This document shows, in pieces, positions 1 to 63,353 of a stretch of DNA of 64,000 nucleotides. The position numbers were made by a program, and so were the translations under genes. The stretch is taken from the sequence record MN715356. One strand, 5' to 3'. The DNA comes from Escherichia phage vB_EcoP_EcoN5. Position 1 is the first letter of the stretch. Each line of letters starts with the position of its first letter. The notes under the pieces were generated by a model that saw only the letters and a program-made list of their open reading frames with translations, was not told the DNA's origin and searched no databases.

Positions 1-1625
1 AAATCTTTGTTGATGAACATGCTACCTCTTTTGCAGATGCACAATATTTCTGTCATCGTGTACGTCGCTCTAAAGAAGATCTGGTTGCTATGGGCTTCCC
101 TAAAGATGAGATTGAAGCATTCAACGACTGGACAGACACGATGGACACTACTCAATCTACAGTTGCTTGGTCTCGTACTGACTGGCGTCAGGACATTGAT
201 GCTGACATTGGTACAGATACTGAAGATATCGCTTCTATGGTTTGGGTTTATGAGCACTACATCCGTACAGGTGTTCTAGATAAGAATAAAGAGTCTAAAC
301 TCTATCAGGTTATTCAAGCTGGTGAGCATATCCTTCACACTGAAGAAGTAACTCATATCCCGTTTGTAACCTTCTGTCCGTATCCTATTCCGGGTTCCTT
401 CTATGGTCAATCAGTTTATGACATTACGAAAGATATTCAGGATTTACGTACCGCGTTAGTTCGTGGTTATATTGATAACGTCAACAATGCTAACTATGGT
501 CGATACAAAGCTCTTGTTGGTGCATACGATCGTCGCTCTCTGCTTGATAACCGTCCCGGTGGAGTGGTTGAAATGGAACGTCAGGACGCTATTGACCTGT
601 TCCCATACCATAATCTACCTCAAGGTATTGACGGCCTCCTAGGCATGTCTGAGGAGCTTAAAGAGACGCGTACAGGTGTAACTAAACTTGGCATGGGTAT
701 CAACCCTGATGTGTTTAAGAATGATAACGCTTATGCAACCGTAGGCTTGATGATGAATGCTGCACAGAACCGTCTCCGTATGGTATGTCGTAACATTGCT
801 CACAATGGTATGGTTGAATTGATGCGTGGTATTTACAGTCTTATCAGAGAGAATGGTGAAGTTCCTATTGAGGTACAGACCCCTCGTGGTATGATTCAGG
901 TTAATCCGAAACAATTACCAGCTCGTCATAATCTTCAAGTTGTTGTAGCTATCTCTCCTAATGAGAAAGCAGAACGTGCACAGAAACTGATTAGCTTGAA
1001 ACAGCTGATTGCAGCAGATGCACAGTTAGCACCTCTCTTCGGTTTGGAGCAAGACCGTTACATGACTGCACAGATCTTTGAGTTAATGGGTATTAAGGAC
1101 ACTCATAAATACCTTCTGCCTCTGGAACAGTATCAGCCTCCTGAGCCGTCTCCAATGGAAATCCTCCAGCTTGAGATGACTAAAGCACAGGTTGAGAACG
1201 TACAGGCTTCTTCTCAGAAGATGATTGCTGATGCATTCGACCAACGTGAACGTACTACATTCGAACAGCAGAAAGCTGCGGATGAATTAAGTCTGCGTCA
1301 GGAAGAGTTGCAGTTCAAGCAAGAAAATGCAGCAGATGCTATGACTCTGGAAAACCGTAAAGAGGATAACAATGCTACTCTGGAACAAGCTAAGCACAAG
1401 TTAGCTCTTATGCAACAGCAAGTCCGTCAGTATGAATCTGTACTGAAAGAATTGCAGATGGTTATGGAGCATCAGGTAGACCAAGAGAAGATTGTTCAGC
1501 AATCTCGTGTTCAGGATAAAACTTTGGAACTCCAAAAGAAAGAAGCTAATGTAACTAAGAAAGAGCAACAAGCTTCTCTCAAAGATTCACGGATTCCAGG
1601 CAAACGTCTTGGAAGTAAAAAGTAA
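1..1625 (+). CDS. portal protein (5'-partial; frame open to window start)
   Basis: ORF 90..1625 has no in-frame stop back to base 3, so the gene starts upstream of the window; sits directly upstream of scaffold and major capsid genes; charged coiled-coil C-terminus. Confidence 0.55.
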   Translation, partial: IFVDEHATSFADAQYFCHRVRRSKEDLVAMGFPKDEIEAFNDWTDTMDTTQSTVAWSRTDWRQDIDADIGTDTEDIASMVWVYEHYIRTGVLDKNKESKLYQVIQAGEHILHTEEVTHIPFVTFCPYPIPGSFYGQSVYDITKDIQDLRTALVRGYIDNVNNANYGRYKALVGAYDRRSLLDNRPGGVVEMERQDAIDLFPYHNLPQGIDGLLGMSEELKETRTGVTKLGMGINPDVFKNDNAYATVGLMMNAAQNRLRMVCRNIAHNGMVELMRGIYSLIRENGEVPIEVQTPRGMIQVNPKQLPARHNLQVVVAISPNEKAERAQKLISLKQLIAADAQLAPLFGLEQDRYMTAQIFELMGIKDTHKYLLPLEQYQPPEPSPMEILQLEMTKAQVENVQASSQKMIADAFDQRERTTFEQQKAADELSLRQEELQFKQENAADAMTLENRKEDNNATLEQAKHKLALMQQQVRQYESVLKELQMVMEHQVDQEKIVQQSRVQDKTLELQKKEANVTKKEQQASLKDSRIPGKRLGSKK

Positions 1626-1634
1626 GGACGTCGA

Positions 1635-1871
1635 ATGAACATTAGGCATCAATTCAATAAAGAGCACGCCGCCGCTTTGGCGGCTCTCAATCTTAACGGC
1701 AGTCTTGACGCAGCATTAGAGGCATTGAAAGAAAGACTCATGACAGAGATAGTTCAAACAGAACCTCATGAGAATAAGAAACGCGAAGATTGTTATCAAA
1801 AGTATAAAATGGTGGGTAGCTTAAAAGAGGTCATAAAAGCTGCTATCAATAGTGCAGGAGATGTTTCATAA
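1635..1871 (+). CDS. hypothetical small protein between portal and scaffold
   Basis: 78-aa ORF, co-oriented, stop overlaps next start (TAATG); no recognisable motif. Confidence 0.4.
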   Translation: MNIRHQFNKEHAAALAALNLNGSLDAALEALKERLMTEIVQTEPHENKKREDCYQKYKMVGSLKEVIKAAINSAGDVS

Positions 1872-3421
1872 TGCCACAAGATAATTATATTGACCCGAAC
1901 GATTTTAAATCTTTCCTCCAACTGGATGACCTGAAAGGTTCTTTTAAAGAAGAGCTTGGTCGATTAGAATCTGAACAAGAACCAGAAGTGGACATTGACG
2001 ATGAGTTTCCGGAACAAACCGGTGACGAATTCGACTTTGATACCGACCTTCTCGGTGAAAGCGATGAGCTTAAGTTCGAAGATGAAGATGGTTGGGAAGA
2101 TCGTGATGAGGAAGGCGAAGTCGAAGAAGATGGGGATGACTCTGATGAAGGTGATGAAAACACTGAAGTAGAAGAGGAAGACTCAAGCGATGCAGGATAT
2201 GAAGATGATTCTGCTGACGGTGATGGTGAAGTCTTTGATGTAGACTACGAAACCGTTATCACCCTTCCTGATGGACGTGAGATGACTATTGAAGAACTCT
2301 CCAATGGCTATCTCACTGGCGCTGATATGACAGAACGAGAATCAACTCTTCAGCGTCATATGGAAGCATTTGAGGAACGTGTAGTAGGTTTGAAGGATGT
2401 ATTAGAATTAGCGTCTTTAGAAGCAGACCGAGTAATTGAAGATTACAACGGATTTGATTGGGACAAGCTTGCAGTAGAAGATCCTCAAGCATATGTTGAA
2501 AACAAACGTTTCCTAGAGAAGTACACAGCTCGTCGTAACCAGCTTGAACAGGCTCAGGCCCGTATTAAGCAGGAAGCAGCAGCTAAAGAGCAGGAAGCTT
2601 TCCAAGCCAAGAGCATTGAATGTGTTAATATTCTGAAACGTGAGATTCCAAATTGGGATGAAAACTTATATCAAAACTTAATGCAATACGCAATTGACTT
2701 AGGTGCTACTGAAGAAGAAGTATTGAAGGAAAACCGTCCGTCTATTTTCCTAGCTCTCCACAAAGCATACCAATTTGATAAAGGTAAGCAGCAGGTGATG
2801 GCTAAGATTAAACGTCCCGGTGCTCCACGCAAGGTTGTGAAGTCTGATGCTGCAAAGTCTCGCACTTCCAATAAGCCAGACAACGCTAAGGTTGCCAAGG
2901 CATTCGCAGAGGGTCGCGTTAGTCACGACAAGCTTGCAGTAGAAGATCCTCAAGCATATGTTGAAAACAAACGTTTCCTAGAGAAGTACACAGCTCGTCG
3001 TAACCAGCTTGAACAGGCTCAGGCCCGTATTAAGCAGGAAGCAGCAGCTAAAGAGCAGGAAGCTTTCCAAGCCAAGAGCATTGAATGTGTTAATATTCTG
3101 AAACGTGAGATTCCAAATTGGGATGAAAACTTATATCAAAACTTAATGCAATACGCAATTGACTTAGGTGCTACTGAAGAAGAAGTATTGAAGGAAAACC
3201 GTCCGTCTATTTTCCTAGCTCTCCACAAAGCATACCAATTTGATAAAGGTAAGCAGCAGGTGATGGCTAAGATTAAACGTCCCGGTGCTCCACGCAAGGT
3301 TGTGAAGTCTGATGCTGCAAAGTCTCGCACTTCCAATAAGCCAGACAACGCTAAGGTTGCCAAGGCATTCGCAGAGGGTCGCGTTAGTCACGAAGACGCA
3401 TTCAAATTCCTCGTAGATTAA
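1871..3421 (+). CDS. scaffolding protein (poly-acidic N-terminal tract; carries in-frame 155-aa tandem duplication)
   Basis: Position between portal and major capsid; acidic D/E-rich region; helical charged C-terminal part repeated twice. Confidence 0.5.
   Translation: MPQDNYIDPNDFKSFLQLDDLKGSFKEELGRLESEQEPEVDIDDEFPEQTGDEFDFDTDLLGESDELKFEDEDGWEDRDEEGEVEEDGDDSDEGDENTEVEEEDSSDAGYEDDSADGDGEVFDVDYETVITLPDGREMTIEELSNGYLTGADMTERESTLQRHMEAFEERVVGLKDVLELASLEADRVIEDYNGFDWDKLAVEDPQAYVENKRFLEKYTARRNQLEQAQARIKQEAAAKEQEAFQAKSIECVNILKREIPNWDENLYQNLMQYAIDLGATEEEVLKENRPSIFLALHKAYQFDKGKQQVMAKIKRPGAPRKVVKSDAAKSRTSNKPDNAKVAKAFAEGRVSHDKLAVEDPQAYVENKRFLEKYTARRNQLEQAQARIKQEAAAKEQEAFQAKSIECVNILKREIPNWDENLYQNLMQYAIDLGATEEEVLKENRPSIFLALHKAYQFDKGKQQVMAKIKRPGAPRKVVKSDAAKSRTSNKPDNAKVAKAFAEGRVSHEDAFKFLVD
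2462..3393. repeat. perfect tandem duplication, 2 x 465 bp (copy 1 about 2462..2926, copy 2 about 2927..3391), in frame within scaffold gene
   Basis: Identical antisense ORFs 2671..2898 and 3136..3363 (offset 465); protein segment DKLAVEDPQ...AFAEGRVSH occurs twice; boundaries checked base by base. Confidence 0.9.
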
Positions 3422-3462: not shown

Positions 3463-4521
3463 ATGGCTAATCCAACTTTATTTGTATCGTATGACCAGAA
3501 TGGTAAAAAACTTTCTTTTGCTAACTGGATTTCTGTTCTGTCCCCTCAGGATACCCCGTTCGTATCCATGACCGGTAAAGAGTCTATCAACCAGACTATC
3601 TTTAGCTGGCAGACCGATGCACTGGCAAGCGTTGATGGTAATAACGCACACGTCGAAGGCTCTCGTGCTGAAGACGGCGAAATGAAACCGACTGTTATCA
3701 AGTCTAACGTTACTCAGATTCTGCGTAAGGTTGTTCGTGTTTCTGATACTGCTAACACCACCGCTAACTATGGTCGTGGTCGTGAACTGATGTATCAGCT
3801 GGAGAAGAAAGGTAAAGAGATCAAGCGTGACCTCGAGAAAATCCTTCTATCCGGTCAGGCTCGTACCGACGTTCTGGCTGACCAGTACCTGACTAACTCT
3901 GCAACTGATCCTGCTGTTGTTGGTTTGAATGACACCCATGCAGCTCGTAAGACTGGTGCATTCCAGTTCCTGTGTGCTCACGGTGGTCTGGCTGGTGGTG
4001 TTGTTGACAAAACCAAGAACGGTCCTGCTGACCCGGATACTGGTGCAGTAACTGTTAAAGTTGCACAGAATGCTTCTAACCCGACTACTAACATCGGCTT
4101 TGATGAAGCAGATATCTTTGACATGACTCTGCAACTGTACACCGCTGGTTCTGAAGCAGATATCATCATGATTAACCCGGCTCATGCTAAGATCTTCGCT
4201 GGCCTGCAAGAAAATACTCAGGGTTCACGTAAGCGTATCTTTGAGAACACCAAGCAGTTCATCTATGAAGTTAACAGCATCACTGACCCGCTGGGCCAGA
4301 GCTACAAAATCATCGTTAACCGTTGGATGCCTACCGATGCAGTTTACTTCTTCCGTAGCGCTGACTGGACCCAGATGGTTCTGCGTGCTCCGAAACGTAC
4401 TGAACTGGCGAAAGATGGTTCTTACGAGAAGTGGATGATTGAAATGGAAGTTGGTCTGCGTCACCGCAACCCGTATGCTTCCGGCGTTCTGTTCACTGCT
4501 GCGGGAAAGGTGGCGGCGTAA
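3463..4521 (+). CDS. major capsid protein
   Basis: 352-aa ORF after scaffold gene, strong RBS (AGGAG), followed by hairpin terminator as usual for highly expressed capsid genes. Confidence 0.6.
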   Translation: MANPTLFVSYDQNGKKLSFANWISVLSPQDTPFVSMTGKESINQTIFSWQTDALASVDGNNAHVEGSRAEDGEMKPTVIKSNVTQILRKVVRVSDTANTTANYGRGRELMYQLEKKGKEIKRDLEKILLSGQARTDVLADQYLTNSATDPAVVGLNDTHAARKTGAFQFLCAHGGLAGGVVDKTKNGPADPDTGAVTVKVAQNASNPTTNIGFDEADIFDMTLQLYTAGSEADIIMINPAHAKIFAGLQENTQGSRKRIFENTKQFIYEVNSITDPLGQSYKIIVNRWMPTDAVYFFRSADWTQMVLRAPKRTELAKDGSYEKWMIEMEVGLRHRNPYASGVLFTAAGKVAA

Positions 4522-4532
4522 CAGTAGACAGT

Positions 4533-5045
4533 GTGACTGTTAGCCCTGCGTCTTTAGCAAGCCTAGAGACAGGGGCTACTCGGCAGTTCACTGCAAGCGC
4601 GGAGAAAAGTGATGGTTCTACCGAAACAACTGGCTTTACTTGGTCAGTGACAGGAGGTGGTTCTATCACTCAGTCGGGTTTGTATACTGCTCCGAGTGCG
4701 TCTCAATCCACTGATGTATCCATTACTGCAACTTTAGAGGGTGTTTCTGGTACAGCAACCATTTCTGAAATTGTTGCTCCTGCTCCTACTATTGTAGCTA
4801 AGGGTCCAATTACGGGTAAAACTGGTGGTTCTTCCACTAACTTCACTACCATGTTTACTGTAACTAATTCTGCTGCTGCGGATTACACATTTGTTGTAAC
4901 CCCTACAGAAGCTGGTACAGTAAGCGCCGCTGGTGCGTTAACCTTAGATGCTGCTGCAAGTGGCGAAGTTACTGTTCAAGCAAGTTTGACAGCTGACCCT
5001 TCCATCAATGCAACATGCACTTTTACTGGTGTAACACCTGCTTAA
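4533..5045 (+). CDS. Ig-like (Big_2-type) domain protein, possible capsid decoration or fibre protein; GTG start
   Basis: T/S/G/A-rich beta-strand pattern typical of bacterial Ig-like domains; start codon is GTG; directly downstream of capsid gene. Confidence 0.45.
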   Translation: MTVSPASLASLETGATRQFTASAEKSDGSTETTGFTWSVTGGGSITQSGLYTAPSASQSTDVSITATLEGVSGTATISEIVAPAPTIVAKGPITGKTGGSSTNFTTMFTVTNSAAADYTFVVTPTEAGTVSAAGALTLDAAASGEVTVQASLTADPSINATCTFTGVTPA

Positions 5046-5908: not shown

Positions 5909-8689
5909 ATGATCGTTTATAATAACCAAGCACCTGATGCAGTGAATAACGTTGGGCAGTTTGGTGCTACTGAAGGCTCTATTGGAGCTTATAAGCAAGC
6001 AGCAGAATATGCAGCTGACTCCAAATATTGGGCACTGTTGGCGGAGTCTAAGTTTGGTACAATTGATGACTTGATCGCTGAAGTAGAACGTCTGTATCAA
6101 CAAGGTGTTCTGATGAAGCAGGATATTGAAGATCTTAAGCAGGACTTTAAAGATCAAGATGCTCGTTTGATGACTCTGATTGCTCAAACTAACGCAGCAG
6201 TCTCTGACGCTAACAATGCTGTAGCTCTAATTAACCAGAAACTTATTGAAGTCCAGAATCAGCTTGACGTTCTGTTAGGAATGTCCGTTGATGTAACCAC
6301 ACTTCCTCCGGGAACCCCAGCTACTGGCTCTTTTAATCCGAATACTGGTGTAATTTCTTTAGGTATCCCAGAGGGTGATCCCGGAAAGGATGGTTCTGTT
6401 AAGGATTTGGATACAGCACCTACCGGTGTTCCAGAGTTAGGGGACTTAGGTTTCTATGTTGATAAGGACGATAATACCGTTCACAAAACAACTTTAGAGA
6501 ATATCGCTAACCTAATCCCGTCTGTTCGATCTGTATCTGTTAACGGTGGCCCTGCTCTTGATGGAGAAGTCGCCCTAACGATTAACAAGGAGACGGTTGG
6601 TTTAGGGAATGTCATAAACGTTCCTCAGTATAGTCGCCAAGAGATTAATGACAAGTTTGACAAAACTACCAAGACATACCAATCAAAAGCAGAAGCAGAT
6701 GCTGACGCTCAATATCGTCAAGTAGGTGAGAAAGTCTTAGTTTGGGAAGCTACTAAGTATGAATTCTATACTGTTGCTGCTAACAAGACGTTAACTCCTG
6801 TTAAAACTGAAGGTAGAATTCTTACCGTTAACTCTCGTTCTCCAGACTCCAGTGGTAACATTGATATTACAATCCCAACAGGGAACCCCTCTCTGTACCT
6901 TGGTGAAATGGTAATGTTCCCTTATGACCCAGCTAAGAATATTTCATATCCTGGTGTTCTTCCTGCTGATGGTCGTCTGGTATCAAAAGAGTCTGCTATC
7001 GACTTAGGCCCATCTCTTGTCAGTGGACAGCTACCTGTTGTTTCTGAAACAGAGTGGCAGGCCGGTGCTAGACAATACTTCTCTTGGGGTAAATTGGCAG
7101 ATGGGGTTACTGATGCAGATTCTACTAACTTTATAAGTATCCGACTTCCTGACTGGACTGGTGGTGAGGCTATCAGGTCTCCTGATTCAGATAAAGATGC
7201 TAATTACAAAGGTCGTGTTCAATCTCAGATTCCTTACATTGTAACCGTAAACGGAAAAGCTCCTGATGACGCTAATGGTAACGTAGTTCTTACGGCTGCT
7301 AATGTTGGTGCAGCGGCATCTGGGGCAAACTTAGATATCACCTCTCTTAATGGATTAACTACCCCTCTCTCTGTTGCTCAGGGTGGTACGGGTGTCACCG
7401 ATATTGGCTCGCTTCGTAGAGCGGCGTTGGTTCAGGGGGTTCTGTGTAATGATCAGGCTGGCCCTCAATCTTATAACAGTTATAGATCTCCTAACGGGGA
7501 GTATGCTTTCAAAGTGGATAACTCGGGACTTGTTGCTTCTATTAATGCAAGGACGGAAGAAGTTGTACCTTTTGCTATAGAATCAGGTGGTACGGGAGCA
7601 ACCACATTAAACGATGCTCGAATTAGTTTAAATTTGGAGAGATTTTTACAGCCTAGCAATGAAACCATAGTTATGGCTCCTAGTAAATCTTCATATTTAA
7701 CAATTTCAGACACCTCTTGGGGGGCTTATAGTTCTGCTGACTCAGCATGGAGAGCTTTAGGGGTAGGACAAGGTGGTACAGGAGCGACCTCTGAGGCTGC
7801 TGCTCGTGTCAATCTGAAGGTGGATAAGCTTGTTCAAAGTTCAACAGACACAAAACTGCTGGATGGTTCTGGAGAACATACCTTCTTTATTACAGATGCA
7901 GATTGGGGGTATTTCAAGAACTCTGACTCTTCTCGAATAGCTTTGCCAGTTATGAGTGGTGGTACAGGAGGGAAAACTCCAGCAGAAGGCTCTGAGAAGC
8001 TAGGAGCAATGCATTGTCAGTATGGTTCATCAACCTACTATGGTGGTGGGGATTTACCAACTGGTGTTGGGTTCTATAACCAAGACACGTCACCTTTTCC
8101 GGGAGGTAACGGAGCACCTTTCGCTTATGCAGAGATAATGACTGTTGCTGAAGGTGGTCGTGGAGGTAACTGGTCCCAAATAGGGTTCTCTACTATCACA
8201 TATGAAGCCCCTCGCTACAGACAAAGAACTAGTGACCCTTCTTTAATCACAAACTGGCGTGACTTCTTAGTAAGGGATTTGAACACTACCATAGATGTTA
8301 ATGGTTTTGTTAAGATTGCATCGCCTATAGTCAAACTAAAATCTGACGGGTCTTCTGAGGTCAATGACCAAGCCCAAGGAGTAACAACCGAAAGATTAGA
8401 TGTTGGTGTTTATAAGATCTCTGGGGTTCTAGGTTTTAACTCAGACCCCTCTTGGGGAGGTAATAATGGCGGTTTCTCTATTCCTCAAAACTCTAATGGT
8501 TTGCCTTTGTTATGGGTGGATTACGAAGTTGATGAAGAAGGTGATATTACTCTGAAAACTTACCATCGAACTCACGAGGGAGTTCCTTCTTTTGCAAGTA
8601 ATGTAATAGAAGGTGTGGTGGATGGAGAACCTATTGACATTCCAGAAGGACGTTGGGTAGATCTTCGTGTAGAGATGCCAACGGTGTAA
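5909..8689 (+). CDS. tail fibre protein with repeated GGTG(A/V)T fibre motifs
   Basis: 926 aa; recurring motifs AQGGTGVTD, ESGGTGATT, GQGGTGATS, MSGGTGGKT typical of phage tail-fibre repeats. Confidence 0.55.
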   Translation: MIVYNNQAPDAVNNVGQFGATEGSIGAYKQAAEYAADSKYWALLAESKFGTIDDLIAEVERLYQQGVLMKQDIEDLKQDFKDQDARLMTLIAQTNAAVSDANNAVALINQKLIEVQNQLDVLLGMSVDVTTLPPGTPATGSFNPNTGVISLGIPEGDPGKDGSVKDLDTAPTGVPELGDLGFYVDKDDNTVHKTTLENIANLIPSVRSVSVNGGPALDGEVALTINKETVGLGNVINVPQYSRQEINDKFDKTTKTYQSKAEADADAQYRQVGEKVLVWEATKYEFYTVAANKTLTPVKTEGRILTVNSRSPDSSGNIDITIPTGNPSLYLGEMVMFPYDPAKNISYPGVLPADGRLVSKESAIDLGPSLVSGQLPVVSETEWQAGARQYFSWGKLADGVTDADSTNFISIRLPDWTGGEAIRSPDSDKDANYKGRVQSQIPYIVTVNGKAPDDANGNVVLTAANVGAAASGANLDITSLNGLTTPLSVAQGGTGVTDIGSLRRAALVQGVLCNDQAGPQSYNSYRSPNGEYAFKVDNSGLVASINARTEEVVPFAIESGGTGATTLNDARISLNLERFLQPSNETIVMAPSKSSYLTISDTSWGAYSSADSAWRALGVGQGGTGATSEAAARVNLKVDKLVQSSTDTKLLDGSGEHTFFITDADWGYFKNSDSSRIALPVMSGGTGGKTPAEGSEKLGAMHCQYGSSTYYGGGDLPTGVGFYNQDTSPFPGGNGAPFAYAEIMTVAEGGRGGNWSQIGFSTITYEAPRYRQRTSDPSLITNWRDFLVRDLNTTIDVNGFVKIASPIVKLKSDGSSEVNDQAQGVTTERLDVGVYKISGVLGFNSDPSWGGNNGGFSIPQNSNGLPLLWVDYEVDEEGDITLKTYHRTHEGVPSFASNVIEGVVDGEPIDIPEGRWVDLRVEMPTV

Positions 8690-8698
8690 ATAATATAT

Positions 8699-8717
8699 GC
8701 TCCCTTCGGGGAGCTTT
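8699..8717 (+). terminator. intergenic hairpin (GCTCCC-TTCG-GGGAGC), weak terminator or RNA processing site
   Basis: Perfect 6-bp GC stem with UUCG loop between fibre genes; downstream U-tract weak. Confidence 0.35.
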
Positions 8718-8729
8718 AAGGAGATTTTA

Positions 8730-10835
8730 ATGTCTAGAGAATTAATGCCCAAGTCTGGCATAATGATGCCTCATGTAGTTGTAACCAGAGATGCGGCTGT
8801 TGTTGGCGTTTCTACTGTAGATGGACAAGCAGGAGCTATTGACCTTACTGGAAAGTATTTGCAGAAAACCGATGCGGCTGCTACATACCAAACTAAAGCA
8901 GAAGGTGCATCTAAAGACTATGTATTAGATTCAATTCAACCTCTCATGTCTGGTGCTTTATTCAGAGCAGACCCTTGGGTTGTTAATGACACACCTTTCC
9001 GCTCTACTGGAGCTAATGGTGTAGAATCTGTGGATATGATGAAAGTTACCACTGATAACTCAATTAAGATTGGTAGTTATGCTTCCTCAGTTCAAGGTGT
9101 AGAGATTCACTCTGCTGGTCGTCTTCAAGTAGTAGACCAGAATGACTCTGGAGTAGAAACTAAGTATCCAGTTTATTCTAAACGATATCGTCCTGAGATT
9201 GAAGATTTACCTTTTGCGGCAATCGGTTCTTATGTTAAGGATTCTAAAGGTCGTACTATTGGTGTTACTCGTACTGGTATCAACTCTGATATCAAACAGC
9301 TTACTCAGAAAGTAACTTTTACCCAACCTGTTACTGTAGCAGATGCTGTAGGTGATTATGATGCAGTAACACTGAGGCAACTTCGTAACAGTGGTGGCGG
9401 TTCTGGTGGTCCTACCATGAGTGGTATCTCAAACTTTGGTATCGGTGATTTCCATCTTCGTGATAGTCGTGCTTTCATCCCCGCCTTCGAGGTTGTGTCG
9501 GATGGGCAGCTTTTAAATCGTGCTGATTATCCAGACCTGTGGGCTTATGCGCAATTGCTATCCCCAATTGAAGACTCTCTTTGGTTGTCTAATATCTATC
9601 AGAGGGGTAGGTATTCTACCGGAAACGGTACAACAACTTTCCGTGTTCCTGACCGAAATGGCATCCAAGAGGGGTCACTGAGAGCTTTATATGGTCGTGG
9701 TGATGGTGGTAATTCTGCTGCAAATGGTCAAGTGTTTGATTCTGCTGCACCGAATATCACATATTCGTCCCCTCACACAATGGTAACACTAGCCTCCATT
9801 CCGGGGCAGGTGGCGACTAACGGGGCAATTCAATCAATCACCTCTACAGACGATGTGGCTCCAGTGGGGGCTGGAGGTAAATACATATCCACAAACTTTG
9901 ACGCATCGCGTTCCAGTCCTATTTATGGTCGCTCCACTGAGGAGATTCTGACCCGTAACTTTGTTGGTGTTTGGACTATTCGTGCTCATGGTGGATTTAC
10001 TGCTGCTAATACTTCTTGGTCTGTTATTAACAGTGATGCGGTTTTGCCAAATACTGGAACTTCTATTAACGGCGGCTCTATCCTGTCTGAGTACAAAGTG
10101 GGCACAAATGTTGAAGGTTCTGCTTCATTCAAAATGGCAGGTGTGGTTGGGTCTGCCTATTCTGCCCGTATTACAGTTTCCAACAAAACTTCAGGAGATA
10201 GTAAAACTTTTGAGTTTTTAAGCAACGGAGATTTAAGTGTTCCGAGAGGTTTACTCACTTTAGAAGGCAATGTCGAAGCTAAAAGTCAACTGATATCCCG
10301 AGGGGGTCGGATAGTTCTTGTAGGCAATGAAGATCAAAGCCAATCTTTTATTGAATTTAACAGCAACAATGGCTATACTGTGTATGGGAGGCTTTACTCA
10401 GAGCGTGATGGTGACGTCACCCTATCAACATCTACATCCGGAACTAATCAAAAATATTTTCAATTTCTCAAGGACGGAAGTGCTACAAGCTCTGGAGGGT
10501 GGATCAACTCTTCTGATATCAGAATTAAAGAGAATGTTGAACCAATTAAAAACCCACTAGACAAAATGAGGAACATTAAAGGTGTTTCTTGGAAACTTAA
10601 AAACGGAGGGAAGGTAGGTTTTGGTTTTATAGCGCAAGATGTTGAAGTAGATTTCCCTGATGCGATTTCTGTTTCAGGTGATATGGAGATGGAAGACGGG
10701 TCTTTAGTGAAGGATGTGAAGTCTGTTAATACCTATGGTGTTGCAGCGGCTTTACACCACGAAGCTATTCTTGAACTTATGAAACAGATCGAAGAACTTA
10801 AGAAAGAGATAGCAGAACTTAAATCTGGTAAATAA
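8730..10835 (+). CDS. tail fibre/tailspike with C-terminal intramolecular chaperone (peptidase S74-like) domain
   Basis: C-terminal segment SSDIRIKENV...FGFIAQDVE...HHEAILELMKQIEELKKEIAELK resembles auto-cleaving chaperone domains of fibres/endosialidases; start moved to ATG 8730 after RBS GGAG. Confidence 0.5.
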   Translation: MSRELMPKSGIMMPHVVVTRDAAVVGVSTVDGQAGAIDLTGKYLQKTDAAATYQTKAEGASKDYVLDSIQPLMSGALFRADPWVVNDTPFRSTGANGVESVDMMKVTTDNSIKIGSYASSVQGVEIHSAGRLQVVDQNDSGVETKYPVYSKRYRPEIEDLPFAAIGSYVKDSKGRTIGVTRTGINSDIKQLTQKVTFTQPVTVADAVGDYDAVTLRQLRNSGGGSGGPTMSGISNFGIGDFHLRDSRAFIPAFEVVSDGQLLNRADYPDLWAYAQLLSPIEDSLWLSNIYQRGRYSTGNGTTTFRVPDRNGIQEGSLRALYGRGDGGNSAANGQVFDSAAPNITYSSPHTMVTLASIPGQVATNGAIQSITSTDDVAPVGAGGKYISTNFDASRSSPIYGRSTEEILTRNFVGVWTIRAHGGFTAANTSWSVINSDAVLPNTGTSINGGSILSEYKVGTNVEGSASFKMAGVVGSAYSARITVSNKTSGDSKTFEFLSNGDLSVPRGLLTLEGNVEAKSQLISRGGRIVLVGNEDQSQSFIEFNSNNGYTVYGRLYSERDGDVTLSTSTSGTNQKYFQFLKDGSATSSGGWINSSDIRIKENVEPIKNPLDKMRNIKGVSWKLKNGGKVGFGFIAQDVEVDFPDAISVSGDMEMEDGSLVKDVKSVNTYGVAAALHHEAILELMKQIEELKKEIAELKSGK

Positions 10836-15554: not shown

Positions 15555-16523
15555 ATGGGTGCAGGTGGTTTTCGTAAGAACACTGGTCGCAACAATACCA
15601 CACTCCCGTACAACGTTGGGTTTCTCAATAATGTACAGGACACAGAAACATATAACGTAGCCGTATATGATGAGCTACAAAAAGTCAGTACAGCTACTAA
15701 CCAAATGTTCCAAGCTATTGACGAGATTCACGATGAGATTGATGTTCGTATCAAAGCTCTTCATGCTATGAACCTACAATTCGATGAGCTTGAGAATAGA
15801 ATTACTACAGAGATAGAGACAGCTATTGCCGATATCCAAACACAGATGGGGAACCTCTCCACTGAAGATATTTGGGATAATTCTGTTCAACCTCCTGTAA
15901 AATTAGAAAGCACTGTATCTGGCTTTAAGACGAGTATTGAAGGTAACACAACTAAGATTCAAACGGTAGAAGGTATTGTCAACGACCAAGGTCAAGAGAT
16001 TGCTTTAGTTCAGACAGAGATTCAAAATATTAATGGAAGCCTCTCTCAGTATATGAAACTTTCCGAGTATGAAGCTACGTGGGGTGTTAACTCTACAGTC
16101 AACGGAAGATATGCTGGGGTCAAGTTAACTAACAACGGAACAAACAGCCAATTCCAAGTAACAGCTAACAAATTTATTGTTGGTGATGGCAACTCTGGTA
16201 ACACTCCCTTCGTGTTTGAGGGTGGTAGAGCTAGGATGGAGTTCGCTGACATAAAGAACGTCAACATCACAACAGCTCAGATTGCCAACGCCAGAATCCA
16301 ATGGGCACAGATTGATAACGTATCTATCTCCAATGCTCAGATTCAGAATTTATCAGCGGATAAAATCACTGCTGGTTCTATGTGGGGTTCTAACTGGAGA
16401 CTTACTGTTGGGGGTGACTTTGTTATGGGCGGTACAGGTGGGGCACAATTGTGGATGAATGGTAACAGAATAGATTTCTATGATGGAAGTGGTGCTCTAA
16501 GAATCAGAATAGGGAGTTGGTAA
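15555..16523 (+). CDS. tail fibre-like protein
   Basis: Start moved to ATG 15555 (RBS GGAGGA) because ORF-track start 15489 overlaps the terminator; repeats such as TAQIANARIQWAQIDNVSISNAQIQNLSADKITAG. Confidence 0.45.
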   Translation: MGAGGFRKNTGRNNTTLPYNVGFLNNVQDTETYNVAVYDELQKVSTATNQMFQAIDEIHDEIDVRIKALHAMNLQFDELENRITTEIETAIADIQTQMGNLSTEDIWDNSVQPPVKLESTVSGFKTSIEGNTTKIQTVEGIVNDQGQEIALVQTEIQNINGSLSQYMKLSEYEATWGVNSTVNGRYAGVKLTNNGTNSQFQVTANKFIVGDGNSGNTPFVFEGGRARMEFADIKNVNITTAQIANARIQWAQIDNVSISNAQIQNLSADKITAGSMWGSNWRLTVGGDFVMGGTGGAQLWMNGNRIDFYDGSGALRIRIGSW

Positions 16524-16524
16524 T

Positions 16525-17544
16525 ATGGCATATGGAATATGGTGTCAACCAGTAGGTCCGGGGCCGGCTGCCCCTGCCTCTCTTTTTATAGATAGTAATC
16601 TAACATTTCCACAATACCTAGGGGCATACAGTATATCCCCTTCGTGGAGTGCTAGAAATGCTTCATTTAACGTTGGCTCTTTTGATGGTCAAGGTGAGTT
16701 GTTAATTGTCCCAACCAGTAGACTTATTCAAGATTATTATGTAGGTACAGATTTAATGCCTAGTTTTAGTTATGTAACAGGTATAGGAACTTCTGGACAA
16801 ACAGTAAACATCAATATAGAACCTGCTGGGGCTAGTGGTAATAACAACAGAAATTTCCCAATGTCATTCCAAGCATATAAACTCTGGCCTAGAGGTAATA
16901 GAAGTTATGGAATAACTTTCTCCAATTCAGCGGATTTCTTTTCTATCTCTGATAGTGGGGTTGTTGGTCAGTGTGTTTGGGCGTACAGAGGGGCTGTAGG
17001 GGATGGTTTTACTGTTCCTAATGCTGGGCCTAATGCTCTTGTGTTTGCCAATTGGAATCAGGGTGGGGTGTGTGCTTCTTACAATGCAAGTAATGGTCAA
17101 ATGATTATAACCCACAATAGGTCGAATCAGTCCGGCAGTAACAGAGGTGCAGTAATAAATGATATGAGAATTGCTGTTTTTGCTAGTGGGGTAGGTGTAC
17201 CGGAACATAATGGAGGTTTGAATATTTATTCTCCTGGGACAACCACTTGTGTATTCTCTACTTACAGGACTCCTTTTGCTATCAGTAGGTTCTTCCCGTC
17301 AAGTGGGGGTGGTACAGGTCTAGGTATTCCTATGATGTGTATGAACGTTACCAACGGAGCTATAACAGCGCAAGGTGGTGGGTGGATGTGGGTTCACGAA
17401 AGATCTCATACAATGAGTGGTACATCGGTGGGAACAGGCTTTGGCCCACTCGTGGCTAACTGGACTGACCAATACCCAATCAATGTTAACATAAACCTAG
17501 GATTCAATTACCCAATGTTGGAAGGTTCTTTAATTTATGCATAA
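16525..17544 (+). CDS. hypothetical virion/tail protein
   Basis: 339-aa ORF in structural operon, Gly/Asn-rich beta-type composition. Confidence 0.4.
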   Translation: MAYGIWCQPVGPGPAAPASLFIDSNLTFPQYLGAYSISPSWSARNASFNVGSFDGQGELLIVPTSRLIQDYYVGTDLMPSFSYVTGIGTSGQTVNINIEPAGASGNNNRNFPMSFQAYKLWPRGNRSYGITFSNSADFFSISDSGVVGQCVWAYRGAVGDGFTVPNAGPNALVFANWNQGGVCASYNASNGQMIITHNRSNQSGSNRGAVINDMRIAVFASGVGVPEHNGGLNIYSPGTTTCVFSTYRTPFAISRFFPSSGGGTGLGIPMMCMNVTNGAITAQGGGWMWVHERSHTMSGTSVGTGFGPLVANWTDQYPINVNINLGFNYPMLEGSLIYA

Positions 17545-58943: not shown

Positions 58944-60140
58944 TTATTTTCCTAAAAATAATCCGCTCATGACACCATCCCACTCAGAGGAAGGAATCAC
59001 TGAATACTCCGAACTTTGGTCCAGAGTCCCACTACTAAATCGCTGAACAATGTTGTAGATGTTGAACAGGTCTTTAGTCTCGGCACGAATGCCGTAGATT
59101 AGCCTGTTAGCTGTTTTCTCATTTTTAGACACGCGACGGGTAAAGTTAACCAAAAGATTATCACCTTTAAGTATCTCTGACCCATCTTTTACTAGATCGG
59201 GGTGCATCACTGGCAAGAACATTGAGTTGTTAACTCGTAATTCTGCTGTTTCATCATTCTCATAATGAATCCACTTAAAGTCTTCATCACGGAAATGACC
59301 ACACCCATCTCTGTATGACTGTTGACGCCAAGGAACTTGAAATGCTTCAGAGTGTTTATCAGCCATGCCGACTGTAAACAGCGACGCTGGGAAGATACAA
59401 GCATCCCAATCATTACCAACCAGAGTTGCTTTCGTTTCCCCTAAGAGGTTAGTGTAAGTGCTAACCATTCGTGAGTAAACGTAAGCCTGAAGAATTGTCC
59501 AGCCTTCAACCAACCATTTATGAAGGAAGGTTTCAACTTGACTCTCTTCATCTTCGCAATAGAAGGTTCTATCTAACATTAAATAGAACAGACAACGATC
59601 AGCAGGAACATTCTCAGTTGCTACCCCCATAAAGCCTTTCTCGTGCCAGCGTAAACAGGAGGGACGATCTTTGTCCACAAATGCTTCCATAGCTTCCAGT
59701 ACAGCACGAGGTGTGGTTCGATATTCAGGGTTTTTGTCGTTCCAACGATCAATGTTATTCTTAGGAGGTGTGTCTTCATCTTCATACGAACACCAACTTA
59801 AAGCTTCAGCTACGTGCTTTTCATCACGCCAGCGTCTAAAACCTAACATCTTCATGTGAGTTCCGGAGTTCCAGATATGCTTGATTTTACACATATCCAT
59901 CTCTCGGCTTAACAGGAATTCTTCCCCATCAGCACTACGAACGTTAGCCTCTTCATGCCACACTCGAACGTGCATATTCCACCCATGAGTTGCCTCATAC
60001 ATGTTAGGGTCGAAGTATTCATCTTCGTCATCATCTTCATCAACGCCACCGTTATAGTTGCGAAGCTGAAGGAACCCATAACAAGGAGGGTTGACCGTTA
60101 AAACATTACCTTCAGTATCTTCTAATGTTACTGGAAACAT
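58944..60140 (-). CDS. hypothetical protein (5' 162 nt lie inside the 1518-bp repeat)
   Basis: 398-aa co-oriented ORF; acidic N-terminal stretch DEDDDEDEY. Confidence 0.4.
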   Translation of the reverse strand: MFPVTLEDTEGNVLTVNPPCYGFLQLRNYNGGVDEDDDEDEYFDPNMYEATHGWNMHVRVWHEEANVRSADGEEFLLSREMDMCKIKHIWNSGTHMKMLGFRRWRDEKHVAEALSWCSYEDEDTPPKNNIDRWNDKNPEYRTTPRAVLEAMEAFVDKDRPSCLRWHEKGFMGVATENVPADRCLFYLMLDRTFYCEDEESQVETFLHKWLVEGWTILQAYVYSRMVSTYTNLLGETKATLVGNDWDACIFPASLFTVGMADKHSEAFQVPWRQQSYRDGCGHFRDEDFKWIHYENDETAELRVNNSMFLPVMHPDLVKDGSEILKGDNLLVNFTRRVSKNEKTANRLIYGIRAETKDLFNIYNIVQRFSSGTLDQSSEYSVIPSSEWDGVMSGLFLGK

Positions 60141-60151
60141 TATACCAACCT

Positions 60152-60514
60152 CTATTGGTTTTTAATCAACTCAATCGACTTACGGATATAAAGAATATCT
60201 CGGAAGTTTCGATAGTTGTTCATAAATTGGTGCTTCTGGAAAGTAGCTTCTTCCAGAGCTTTCTTTGCTTCTGCGTAATTTTTACGGGCAAGATGTACAA
60301 CCCGCTCTGGTAACACATTTGCACGACGGATGATATACTTGTGAGCTTTCATGTTGCTTTGCTCACGAGCAATCTTACATTTAGCAACTTTGATACCATT
60401 TGCAATCCAAGCAAGTTCTTGCTCAAGCTCATCGTTGGACATTCCACCGAGATTTGATGCAACCTTGTTCAGAGTTTCAATATTAACGTTGCCCTTAATG
60501 GGACGTGTATTCAT
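60152..60514 (-). CDS. hypothetical protein (within repeat copy 1)
   Basis: 120-aa ORF, basic helical. Confidence 0.4.
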   Translation of the reverse strand: MNTRPIKGNVNIETLNKVASNLGGMSNDELEQELAWIANGIKVAKCKIAREQSNMKAHKYIIRRANVLPERVVHLARKNYAEAKKALEEATFQKHQFMNNYRNFRDILYIRKSIELIKNQ

Positions 60515-60516
60515 AC

Positions 60517-60669
60517 TTACTCCTGTTGTTTACACTCGTCAATAACCCACTGATAAGTGGATTGCCCAGAAAAGAAACACTGAATAAATCCAGATGTTCT
60601 CTGCGTTACCAGTGCTAGTGCACAAATCACTACCGCTGCTGCTAGCAGTTTTAAATCTAATTTAGACAT
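60517..60669 (-). CDS. small hydrophobic protein (50 aa, within repeat copy 1)
   Basis: Unlisted ORF MSKLDLKLLAAAVVICALALV...; stop sits 2 nt before next start. Confidence 0.3.
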   Translation of the reverse strand: MSKLDLKLLAAAVVICALALVTQRTSGFIQCFFSGQSTYQWVIDECKQQE

Positions 60670-60906
60670 ATTTCCTCTCATTGAATTTAAAAAAGGACTC
60701 TCCGAAAAGAGCCAAGCTTTAAATCCAAAAAAAGATATTACCCAATATCTGTGGATAACCTGCTCTTAAAATATCTATCCGACGGATGTTTGAGGAACAC
60801 TCCTCTCCCTAGCATCGGCCCCATACGGGAAATATATTAAGATTAGGTTAGTTGAGTCAGAATAACTCACATAGCCCTCCGAGGAAGGCTATAGGTGTTA
60901 CTACAA

Positions 60907-61122
60907 CTAAAAATCACCTGATTTTACAAAATCATCACTAAGAATTTCGTCAATCTCTTTGCTAGTCAAATCTTTCCTGAACCAGCAACAAGGTACATCC
61001 ACCCATTGACCAGAGTTGTTTTCTACAGAGCATCTATTGCCTGTCTTACTCTTGCACTTATAGGTTTTACCTTTGTCTAGACGGTAGTGTATTCTGTAAA
61101 CGATCGACACAAGTGTTATCAT
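60907..61122 (-). CDS. hypothetical small Cys-containing protein (within repeat copy 1)
   Basis: 71-aa ORF with CKSKTGNRC...CC. Confidence 0.35.
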   Translation of the reverse strand: MITLVSIVYRIHYRLDKGKTYKCKSKTGNRCSVENNSGQWVDVPCCWFRKDLTSKEIDEILSDDFVKSGDF

Positions 61123-61355
61123 TACTCGCCTTTCTTAGCACGATCTTTGGCAGTTTTGCCAGTGCGGATGCGATGGGAAACGTTAACCAGAGTGCCACCA
61201 TCAACTACGGTAACGCTCTTGTTTTTAGCCAGATCGAACACAGTTTTCTCCGTGCCACCCAAGCGAATTTGCTTAGGCTCACTGAAGGTTTGGGTTGATT
61301 TAGATTGGAACTGAAACGGTTGACGGATTGCATCAATTGCACTTACTTTAGACAT
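61122..61355 (-). CDS. hypothetical small protein (within repeat copy 1)
   Basis: 77-aa ORF, 1-nt overlap with downstream gene. Confidence 0.4.
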   Translation of the reverse strand: MSKVSAIDAIRQPFQFQSKSTQTFSEPKQIRLGGTEKTVFDLAKNKSVTVVDGGTLVNVSHRIRTGKTAKDRAKKGE

Positions 61356-61490
61356 AGTGGAAATTCCTTAAAAAGTTATGGCTGCGTAGAGGGAATTCCC
61401 TACGCAAATTGGGCCGCCTAAAAAGAGGCGTCATAGTACTAAAAGGAGGAGAGAAGAGGGCTTATTTAGCTACCTTTTTCTGTCCGTTTA

Positions 61491-61658
61491 CAAACCCCAC
61501 CCATGAGTTGCCTCATACATGTTAGGGTCGAAGTATTCATCTTCGTCATCATCTTCATCAACGCCACCGTTATAGTTGCGAAGCTGAAGGAACCCATAAC
61601 AAGGAGGGTTGACCGTTAAAACATTACCTTCAGTATCTTCTAATGTTACTGGAAACAT
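61491..61658 (-). pseudogene. truncated duplicate of the 5' end of gene 58944..60140, created at the repeat junction
   Basis: First 54 codons identical to the 398-aa gene, then the frame runs into copy-1 tail and stops after 2 codons. Confidence 0.6.
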
Positions 61659-61669
61659 TATACCAACCT

Positions 61670-62032
61670 CTATTGGTTTTTAATCAACTCAATCGACTTA
61701 CGGATATAAAGAATATCTCGGAAGTTTCGATAGTTGTTCATAAATTGGTGCTTCTGGAAAGTAGCTTCTTCCAGAGCTTTCTTTGCTTCTGCGTAATTTT
61801 TACGGGCAAGATGTACAACCCGCTCTGGTAACACATTTGCACGACGGATGATATACTTGTGAGCTTTCATGTTGCTTTGCTCACGAGCAATCTTACATTT
61901 AGCAACTTTGATACCATTTGCAATCCAAGCAAGTTCTTGCTCAAGCTCATCGTTGGACATTCCACCGAGATTTGATGCAACCTTGTTCAGAGTTTCAATA
62001 TTAACGTTGCCCTTAATGGGACGTGTATTCAT
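61670..62032 (-). CDS. hypothetical protein (repeat copy 2 duplicate of 60152..60514)
   Basis: Identical 120-aa translation. Confidence 0.4.
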   Translation of the reverse strand: MNTRPIKGNVNIETLNKVASNLGGMSNDELEQELAWIANGIKVAKCKIAREQSNMKAHKYIIRRANVLPERVVHLARKNYAEAKKALEEATFQKHQFMNNYRNFRDILYIRKSIELIKNQ

Positions 62033-62034
62033 AC

Positions 62035-62187
62035 TTACTCCTGTTGTTTACACTCGTCAATAACCCACTGATAAGTGGATTGCCCAGAAAAGAAACACTG
62101 AATAAATCCAGATGTTCTCTGCGTTACCAGTGCTAGTGCACAAATCACTACCGCTGCTGCTAGCAGTTTTAAATCTAATTTAGACAT
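62035..62187 (-). CDS. small hydrophobic protein (repeat copy 2 duplicate)
   Basis: Identical to 60517..60669 at offset 1518. Confidence 0.3.
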   Translation of the reverse strand: MSKLDLKLLAAAVVICALALVTQRTSGFIQCFFSGQSTYQWVIDECKQQE

Positions 62188-62424
62188 ATTTCCTCTCATT
62201 GAATTTAAAAAAGGACTCTCCGAAAAGAGCCAAGCTTTAAATCCAAAAAAAGATATTACCCAATATCTGTGGATAACCTGCTCTTAAAATATCTATCCGA
62301 CGGATGTTTGAGGAACACTCCTCTCCCTAGCATCGGCCCCATACGGGAAATATATTAAGATTAGGTTAGTTGAGTCAGAATAACTCACATAGCCCTCCGA
62401 GGAAGGCTATAGGTGTTACTACAA

Positions 62425-62640
62425 CTAAAAATCACCTGATTTTACAAAATCATCACTAAGAATTTCGTCAATCTCTTTGCTAGTCAAATCTTTCCTGAAC
62501 CAGCAACAAGGTACATCCACCCATTGACCAGAGTTGTTTTCTACAGAGCATCTATTGCCTGTCTTACTCTTGCACTTATAGGTTTTACCTTTGTCTAGAC
62601 GGTAGTGTATTCTGTAAACGATCGACACAAGTGTTATCAT
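62425..62640 (-). CDS. hypothetical small protein (repeat copy 2 duplicate)
   Basis: Identical 71-aa translation. Confidence 0.35.
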   Translation of the reverse strand: MITLVSIVYRIHYRLDKGKTYKCKSKTGNRCSVENNSGQWVDVPCCWFRKDLTSKEIDEILSDDFVKSGDF

Positions 62641-62873
62641 TACTCGCCTTTCTTAGCACGATCTTTGGCAGTTTTGCCAGTGCGGATGCGATGGGAAACG
62701 TTAACCAGAGTGCCACCATCAACTACGGTAACGCTCTTGTTTTTAGCCAGATCGAACACAGTTTTCTCCGTGCCACCCAAGCGAATTTGCTTAGGCTCAC
62801 TGAAGGTTTGGGTTGATTTAGATTGGAACTGAAACGGTTGACGGATTGCATCAATTGCACTTACTTTAGACAT
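62640..62873 (-). CDS. hypothetical small protein (repeat copy 2 duplicate)
   Basis: Identical 77-aa translation. Confidence 0.4.
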   Translation of the reverse strand: MSKVSAIDAIRQPFQFQSKSTQTFSEPKQIRLGGTEKTVFDLAKNKSVTVVDGGTLVNVSHRIRTGKTAKDRAKKGE

Positions 62874-62979
62874 AGTGGAAATTCCTTAAAAAGTTATGGC
62901 TGCGTAGAGGGAATTCCCTACGCAAATTGGGCCGCCTAAAAAGAGGCGTCATAGTACTAAAAGGAGGAGAGAAGAGGGC

Positions 62980-63096
62980 TTATTTAGCTACCTTTTTCTG
63001 TCCGTTTACAAACCAGATAATCGAACCGTCAGGCTGTCGTTGACCGAAGCCTTTTTGGTTAATCATATCGTCATAAGAATATGCTTTACGTCTCAT
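62980..63096 (-). CDS. small hypothetical protein (38 aa) spanning the outer repeat boundary
   Basis: Unlisted ORF MRRKAYSYDDMINQKGFGQRQPDGSIIWFVNGQKKVAK; 5' part in unique DNA, 3' part inside repeat. Confidence 0.3.
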   Translation of the reverse strand: MRRKAYSYDDMINQKGFGQRQPDGSIIWFVNGQKKVAK

Positions 63097-63104
63097 TTGT
63101 TTTC

Positions 63105-63353
63105 CTACGAAGTTAGGATGATTTCAGCCTTAATAAACTTCTCACCAACAACCATGTCACCAGACACAGGACGAACCTCTCCAGTGCCTAGGTTAACAGC
63201 TCCAGCAGGTTGACAACCCATGCTCTTAGTTGTCAGCATGTAAATCTTTTGAAGATGGCACTCTTGGAGAGTGAACACATCTGACATATTTAGATCTTTA
63301 ACACGGAGGACTGTTTCCTCTTTGCTCTTAACTTTAATATGAATAGTGCTCAT
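63105..63353 (-). CDS. hypothetical small protein
   Basis: 82-aa co-oriented ORF. Confidence 0.35.
   Translation of the reverse strand: MSTIHIKVKSKEETVLRVKDLNMSDVFTLQECHLQKIYMLTTKSMGCQPAGAVNLGTGEVRPVSGDMVVGEKFIKAEIILTS

Follow-up and report, generated by a model that had tools for sequence, protein, structure and literature searches.

The head scaffolding gene of Escherichia phage vB_EcoP_EcoN5 contains the same 465 nt twice in succession in the sequence record MN715356. The question that this locus raises is whether the phage DNA really carries this duplication, and with it a scaffolding protein of 516 aa, or whether the repeat was introduced during library preparation and assembly. We examined a 64,000-nt stretch of this record (the window), its relatives, and the predicted structure of the protein. 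We consider the chances to be even that a real and recent duplication was present in the DNA of the EcoN5 stock, in all or part of the population.

The scaffolding gene and its repeated segment

The window comes from a phiEco32-like coliphage (genus Kuravirus) and is collinear with phiEco32 positions 4462-64350. Its structural region is ~94% identical to the nearest phage records, and all the long phiEco32 ORFs were intact in it, with no frameshifts. [quoted passage not shown] The 516-aa ORF matched PHROG 9013 ('head scaffolding protein', E 2.4e-266) in two matched stretches, and its product was 97% identical to the scaffolding protein of phage LAMP. Exact-sequence matching identified it with a public entry, QGZ13707.1 / YP_010673538.1, which is titled 'scaffolding protein [Escherichia phage vB_EcoP_EcoN5]'.

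When we searched for more distant similarities, no Pfam model scored above the cut-offs for the scaffolding protein. A sequence search of the PDB gave nothing relevant (none with E < 0.01, and chance matches to ribonucleotide reductase only), and Foldseek with the scaffold model found no match in the PDB with E < 3. The fold neighbours in BFVD were podophage scaffolding proteins of 293-382 aa, the top match being the EcoN5 entry itself. Judged by its sequence, the protein is clearly a Kuravirus head scaffolding protein by descent that is aberrant in length (516 aa versus 317-398 aa), while its annotation and gene position point to a putative scaffold role in procapsid assembly. In phage SU10, proteomics detected a 41.2-kDa scaffolding protein in the phage preparation.

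Direct comparison within the window showed that positions 2462-2926 match 2927-3391 at every one of the 465 nt (0 mismatches), and Tandem Repeats Finder (TRF) reported a period of 465, 2.0 copies and 100% matches. The perfect tandem duplication described in an earlier note on this DNA was thus confirmed, as was its remark that copy 2 runs about 2 bp further in register: the match extends rightward by 2 nt ('GA', 3392-3393 = 2462-2463) and leftward by 0 nt. At the junction between the copies (2926/2927) the sequence reads GTTAGTCAC up to the breakpoint and GACAAGCTT after it. The two copies are arranged head-to-tail, as in a tandem segmental duplication, and the identity of 465 bases rules out chance as their source. 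A HindIII site (AAGCTT) lies 3 nt inside the start of the unit; the other breakpoint had no matching site, and we treated this as a coincidence.

Both copies fall within one ORF (1871-3421, plus strand). The repeat unit encodes residues 198-352 (DKLAVEDPQ...AFAEGRVSH), which recur at 353-507 and are followed by nine unique residues, EDAFKFLVD. The frame is preserved because 465 is 3 x 155, and the growth from 361 to 516 aa that the note had proposed agrees with the intact ORF. When one copy was taken out, 361 aa remained, matching in length the phiEco32 homologue and almost every relative. The predicted masses are 59.0 kDa for the 516-aa protein and 41.3 kDa for the single-copy 361-aa form. 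The 155-aa segment had been called helical and charged, and it was indeed largely helical, with 29 K+R and 22 D+E residues and a pI of 9.45. The coordinates of all these features are given in Table 1.

Table 1. Positions of the features in the window (nucleotides) and in the native 361-aa model (residues)
Feature	Position	Strand	Basis or remark
Portal gene, C-terminal part	1..1625	+	tblastn of phiEco32 portal residues 208-747, 99.6% identity
Head scaffolding gene with duplication	1871..3421	+	ORF, PHROG 9013, 98.7% DNA identity to relatives spanning only 1,086 nt
Copy 1 of 465-nt unit, codons 198-352	2462..2926	+	identical to copy 2
Copy 2 of 465-nt unit, codons 353-507	2927..3391	+	identical to copy 1
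'GA' common to the unit's first two bases; sole breakpoint microhomology	3392..3393	+	
Unduplicated last 9 codons (EDAFKFLVD) and stop codon	3392..3421	+	second helix of predicted C-terminal helix-turn-helix
Major head protein gene	3463..4521	+	protein 100% identical to phiEco32
Copy 1 of 1,518-nt unit	59979..61496		minus-strand early-gene region; ~ phiEco32 61146-63128 minus phi32_92
Copy 2 of 1,518-nt unit	61497..63014		junction with 0 nt microhomology
Disordered, very acidic region (55 D+E)	residues 1-120		native model
Beta-hairpin	residues 129-139		native model
Long helix	residues 140-192		native model
Loop	residues 193-196		native model
Helices	residues 197-203 and 205-258		native model
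Small helical bundle	residues 264-304		native model
Disordered basic linker, 33 residues, pI 11.2	residues 305-337		native model
Terminal helix-turn-helix	residues 338-346 / 352-358		native model

A comparison with related scaffolding genes had been proposed as a check. Only the single-copy length was seen in 96 of the 96 matching phage records (mostly 1,086 nt, with a few at 1,077 nt), and a 400-nt probe across the junction split into two pieces ~467 nt apart in 60 of 60 of the matches listed. The scaffold junction 30-mer and 22-mer were absent from the IMG/VR and JGI metagenome contigs. We found 61 homologous clusters, 317-398 aa long, among 5.8 billion protein clusters, and the 516-aa protein falls outside this family-typical range; the scaffold length was conserved down to 36% identity. 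The exact single-copy 361-aa version of the EcoN5 protein occurs in independent Logan assemblies (P0062), and no further exact copy of the 516-aa protein was present among the encoding contigs. As no relative has the repeat, the 465-nt duplication is private to one record. The wording of the earlier note, 'recent or an artefact', holds. As a whole that reading was partly supported: its descriptive claims stood, but the second tandem duplication of the window (59979-63014) had been left unlinked to this one.

Some further features of the window were also observed. An Ig-domain ORF (4533-5045, GTG start, in another frame) lies 11 nt past the stop codon of the major head protein gene (4519-4521), and SU10 proteomics had reported a 55.4-kDa 'CDS9+10' alternative major head protein. 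These data suggest that programmed frameshifting at 3463-5045 yields a decorated capsid subunit. In the regions 5909-10817 and 16513-17541, the two tail-fibre genes (homologues of phiEco32 gp14 and gp15) have ~64-65% protein identity to phiEco32, and the homologue of the gp21 'membrane protein' has 46% identity, compared with 97-100% for the neighbouring structural genes; these divergent tail-fibre and gp21 genes look like mosaic host-range modules. ARAGORN found no tRNA in the 64-kb window, and the tRNA-Arg(UCU) reported for EcoN5 (phiEco32 66354-66427) must therefore be outside it.

Predicted anatomy of the native and the lengthened protein

The AlphaFold2 model of the native (361-aa) protein was built on 49 homologues and had a mean pLDDT of 72.6, which rose above 90 over residues 150-300. 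The Kuravirus scaffolds (phiEco32 gp10 / SU10 CDS8, PHROG 9013) occupy the same gene position and are 97-98% identical over the shared parts. Their layout is also alike, with an acidic disordered N-terminus, a beta-hairpin, two ~53-residue helices, a small helical bundle, a basic linker and a C-terminal helix-turn-helix. The difference lies in length: the others have 361 aa, whereas EcoN5 has 516 aa with residues 198-352 present twice, and none of the 61 clusters exceeds 398 aa.

In the AlphaFold2 model the unit begins just past the loop at 193-196 and finishes in the turn of the terminal hairpin, so that it comprises the entire C-terminal module except the last helix. With these boundaries, the product would be the native protein that has gained a further C-terminal module at the loop while its own C-terminus stays intact. 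In the model of the 516-aa protein, both copies formed the same helices (pLDDT ~90), and the internal junction was again predicted as a helix-turn-helix. It is plausible from these models that the 516-aa protein would be tolerated. We also considered the location of the breakpoints in loops as an indication of viability; this was weak, since about half of the residues of the native model are non-helical.

In scaffolds of the P22 gp8 type, the C-terminal helix-turn-helix binds the coat protein. The EcoN5 scaffold resembles these in being an elongated helical protein with a predicted terminal helix-turn-helix that follows a strongly basic segment (pI 11.2). However, no solved scaffold detectably related to it in sequence or fold emerged from the searches, and the similarity is one of predicted shape alone.

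Origin of the two tandem duplications

The window contains one other exact repeat of at least 25 nt. Positions 59979-61496 are identical to 61497-63014, a perfect tandem duplication of 1,518 nt, which doubles the homologues of phiEco32 gp89, 90, 91 and 93. The junction at 61496/61497 creates a 56-aa truncated gp88-like ORF (61658..61488, minus strand). None of the 80 matching phage records covered more than half of a probe across this junction, and phiEco32 itself has no internal exact repeat, just its 193-bp terminal repeat. That 1,518 is a multiple of three was not taken as meaningful, as the junction ORF ends after two codons.

We also noted that phi32_92 (a 'membrane protein', phiEco32 62290-62754) has no counterpart here, and phiEco32 62296-62749 is missing from the window. 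This gap sits within each of the 1,518-nt units, at ~61118-61127 and 62636-62645.

The sequencing of EcoN5 is described in its genome announcement. DNA from 100 uL of lysate was sequenced on a MiSeq from 500-750-bp fragments and assembled with SPAdes 3.11.1 into one 76,083-bp contig at a k-mer coverage of 14.2x, and the reads are public as SRR33084599 (PMC13248719). Neither repeat is mentioned or verified in the announcement, which also reports headful packaging of a circularly permuted genome, as well as an 'integrase indicative of lysogeny' (PMC13248719). Fixed direct terminal repeats of 193 bp are present in both phiEco32 and SU10. The Kuravirus group is regarded as lytic. At this k-mer coverage, the headful and lysogeny calls for EcoN5 look doubtful.

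A library or assembly artefact, with no packaged EcoN5 genome carrying the repeat, is a serious contender to which we assign somewhat less than an even chance. In that case a small number of molecules that were chimeric or duplicated by PCR, or else a finishing step, would have produced a loop in the assembly graph that was traversed once, so that the unit was written twice, and likewise at 59979-63014. Several observations favour this. Two perfect tandem duplications occur in one contig and both are unique among relatives, while a single-copy protein that is otherwise identical exists in independent assemblies. The 465-nt repeat falls in an essential gene whose length is conserved. The coverage was low, the DNA came from a small volume of lysate, and the announcement is silent on both repeats (PMC13248719). 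The presence of the second duplication together with the 14.2x k-mer coverage makes the risk of an artefact greater.

At least one other public Kuravirus record, that of phage PH444, looks badly over-length, which also fits an artefact. This record (PP350014.1) is unannotated and, at 114,913 bp, is ~1.5x the usual genome, probably as a result of concatenation or of chimeric assembly.

The breakpoints point in the same direction. Microhomology was 2 nt at the 465-nt junction and 0 nt at the 1,518-nt junction, with no flanking similarity. Random breakpoints placed in this sequence had 0 nt in 54% and a total of 2 nt in 11.5% of the trials. The observed values are thus at the random expectation, as an artefact would predict, and the joins look non-homologous. 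Verified amplification junctions in T4 have microhomologies of 6-10 bp (PMC9391042), and neither of the EcoN5 duplications had a junction of this kind.

Other observations stand against an artefact. SPAdes invents no repeats from clean reads, and in simulations it gave no misassemblies in ~1,800 phage genomes at 20-100x coverage. In de Bruijn graph assembly, a repeat is written twice only if the junction k-mers occur in the reads. Random ligation chimeras would be expected mostly to join distant sites, and would rarely be local, on the same strand and head-to-tail twice over, so that two local head-to-tail events would fit duplication in vivo better. The repeat is in frame, for which an artefact would have a 1 in 3 chance. 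The window was otherwise clean, a part of a single SPAdes contig with no frameshifts, broken genes or other signs of poor assembly.

A real event is supported by these last observations and by the exact head-to-tail repeat with its frame kept in an essential gene. We propose that a very recent 465-bp head-to-tail duplication was present in the DNA of the sequenced EcoN5 lysate, in all or part of the population. The event would have been a non-homologous join within the scaffolding gene, by which codon 352 came to run directly into codon 198. The predicted product would carry a second C-terminal module (long helix 205-258, the bundle, the 33-residue basic linker and the first terminal helix) after the first long helix, and the native elements, including the true C-terminal helix-turn-helix, would be kept whole and in order. 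The data show the repeat itself, the identity of the gene and the absence of the duplication from relatives, and we infer junction-bearing molecules in the library, an event in vivo and tolerance of the protein. That the duplication is fixed, with a working 516-aa scaffold, is a more tentative proposition, which we rate as possible and somewhat doubtful.

A real duplication also meets objections. It is unlikely that a genome of 76 kb would acquire two perfect duplications independently. As the scaffold length is tightly conserved, an increase of 43% is likely to be costly, and a perfect 465-bp repeat should be lost fast by recombination unless it is selected. The absence of the duplication from all relatives, the low k-mer coverage and the random-looking junctions also count against it, and an assembly loop may enter the consensus though only part of the molecules carry the repeat.

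Comparable duplications are known from other phages. Enterococcus phage EfV12-phi1 acquired perfect in-frame 1.8-kb tandem duplications in a tail-fibre gene, and its case is like that of EcoN5 in being a perfect in-frame head-to-tail duplication in a phage structural gene, seen in short-read data (PMC6365445). However, the EfV12-phi1 duplications were confirmed by excess coverage, a ladder of PCR products and long reads, whereas the EcoN5 repeat is known from assembled sequence. They arose in four replicate lines under host resistance, and they affected an adsorption protein, while in EcoN5 it is an assembly chaperone (PMC6365445). Tandem segmental amplification of dmd-tifA in T4 similarly gave recent identical tandem repeats in the genome of a lytic coliphage (PMC9391042). 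The T4 system differs from EcoN5 in its microhomologies (6-10 bp versus 2 and 0 nt), and in that its gain of copies was balanced by deletions under headful packaging, whereas Kuraviruses have fixed terminal repeats (PMC9391042).

Genome length and head length

We also evaluated the possibility that both duplications are real and that selection favoured them as a way to lengthen a short genome, the added 1,983 bp acting as a DNA 'stuffer' that restores packaging density. Possibly, each duplication would then be present in a different sub-population and the two were merged by the assembler. The record has 76,083 bp and would have 74,100 bp without the repeats, while most listed Kuravirus records have roughly 75-79 kb. 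Amplification is coupled with genome size in T4 (PMC9391042), and the EcoN5 announcement states headful packaging (PMC13248719). However, viable Kuraviruses range from 67.0 to 81.6 kb, so that 74 kb is not short, and the ends of phiEco32 and SU10 are fixed 193-bp terminal repeats and not headful. With this range and these ends, selection for length would be weak. An insertion inside an essential structural gene is also unexpected under such selection, and we regard this explanation as very unlikely.

A real duplication could bear on the head itself. The SU10 head measures 1430 x 460 Å (Tend=4, Tmid=20, nine hexamer layers), and its authors regard the determinant of head length as unknown, with the scaffold as a candidate. 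It is plausible, as has been proposed, that a longer scaffold could alter the procapsid size of such a Tend=4/Tmid=20 prolate head. For the EcoN5 duplication in particular, we consider an effect on head length unlikely.

A further proposal would join the two duplications. Here the scaffold duplication would be fixed, the 59-kDa protein functional, and its two modules would shift the head length, making the scaffold the length determinant of C3-morphotype phages; the 1.5-kb duplication would be extra DNA in the altered head, and EcoN5 a snapshot of a capsid-genome 'ratchet'. In the 'genetic ratchet' model (Hua et al. 2017), the head is enlarged by a mutation in the capsid or scaffold, and the genome grows through tandem duplication (PMC5646251). 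EcoN5 likewise combines an altered scaffold gene with a further tandem duplication. However, the model assumes headful packaging (PMC5646251), and a larger head in EcoN5 is hypothetical. We consider this combined proposal highly improbable.

The outcome matters in either case. If the repeat is an artefact, the 516-aa scaffold model and the gene count in RefSeq (YP_010673538.1), UniProt and BFVD are wrong and need correction. The heads of Kuraviruses are among the most elongated phage heads known, and if the duplication is true and viable, EcoN5 would be a ready-made natural experiment on Kuravirus head length.
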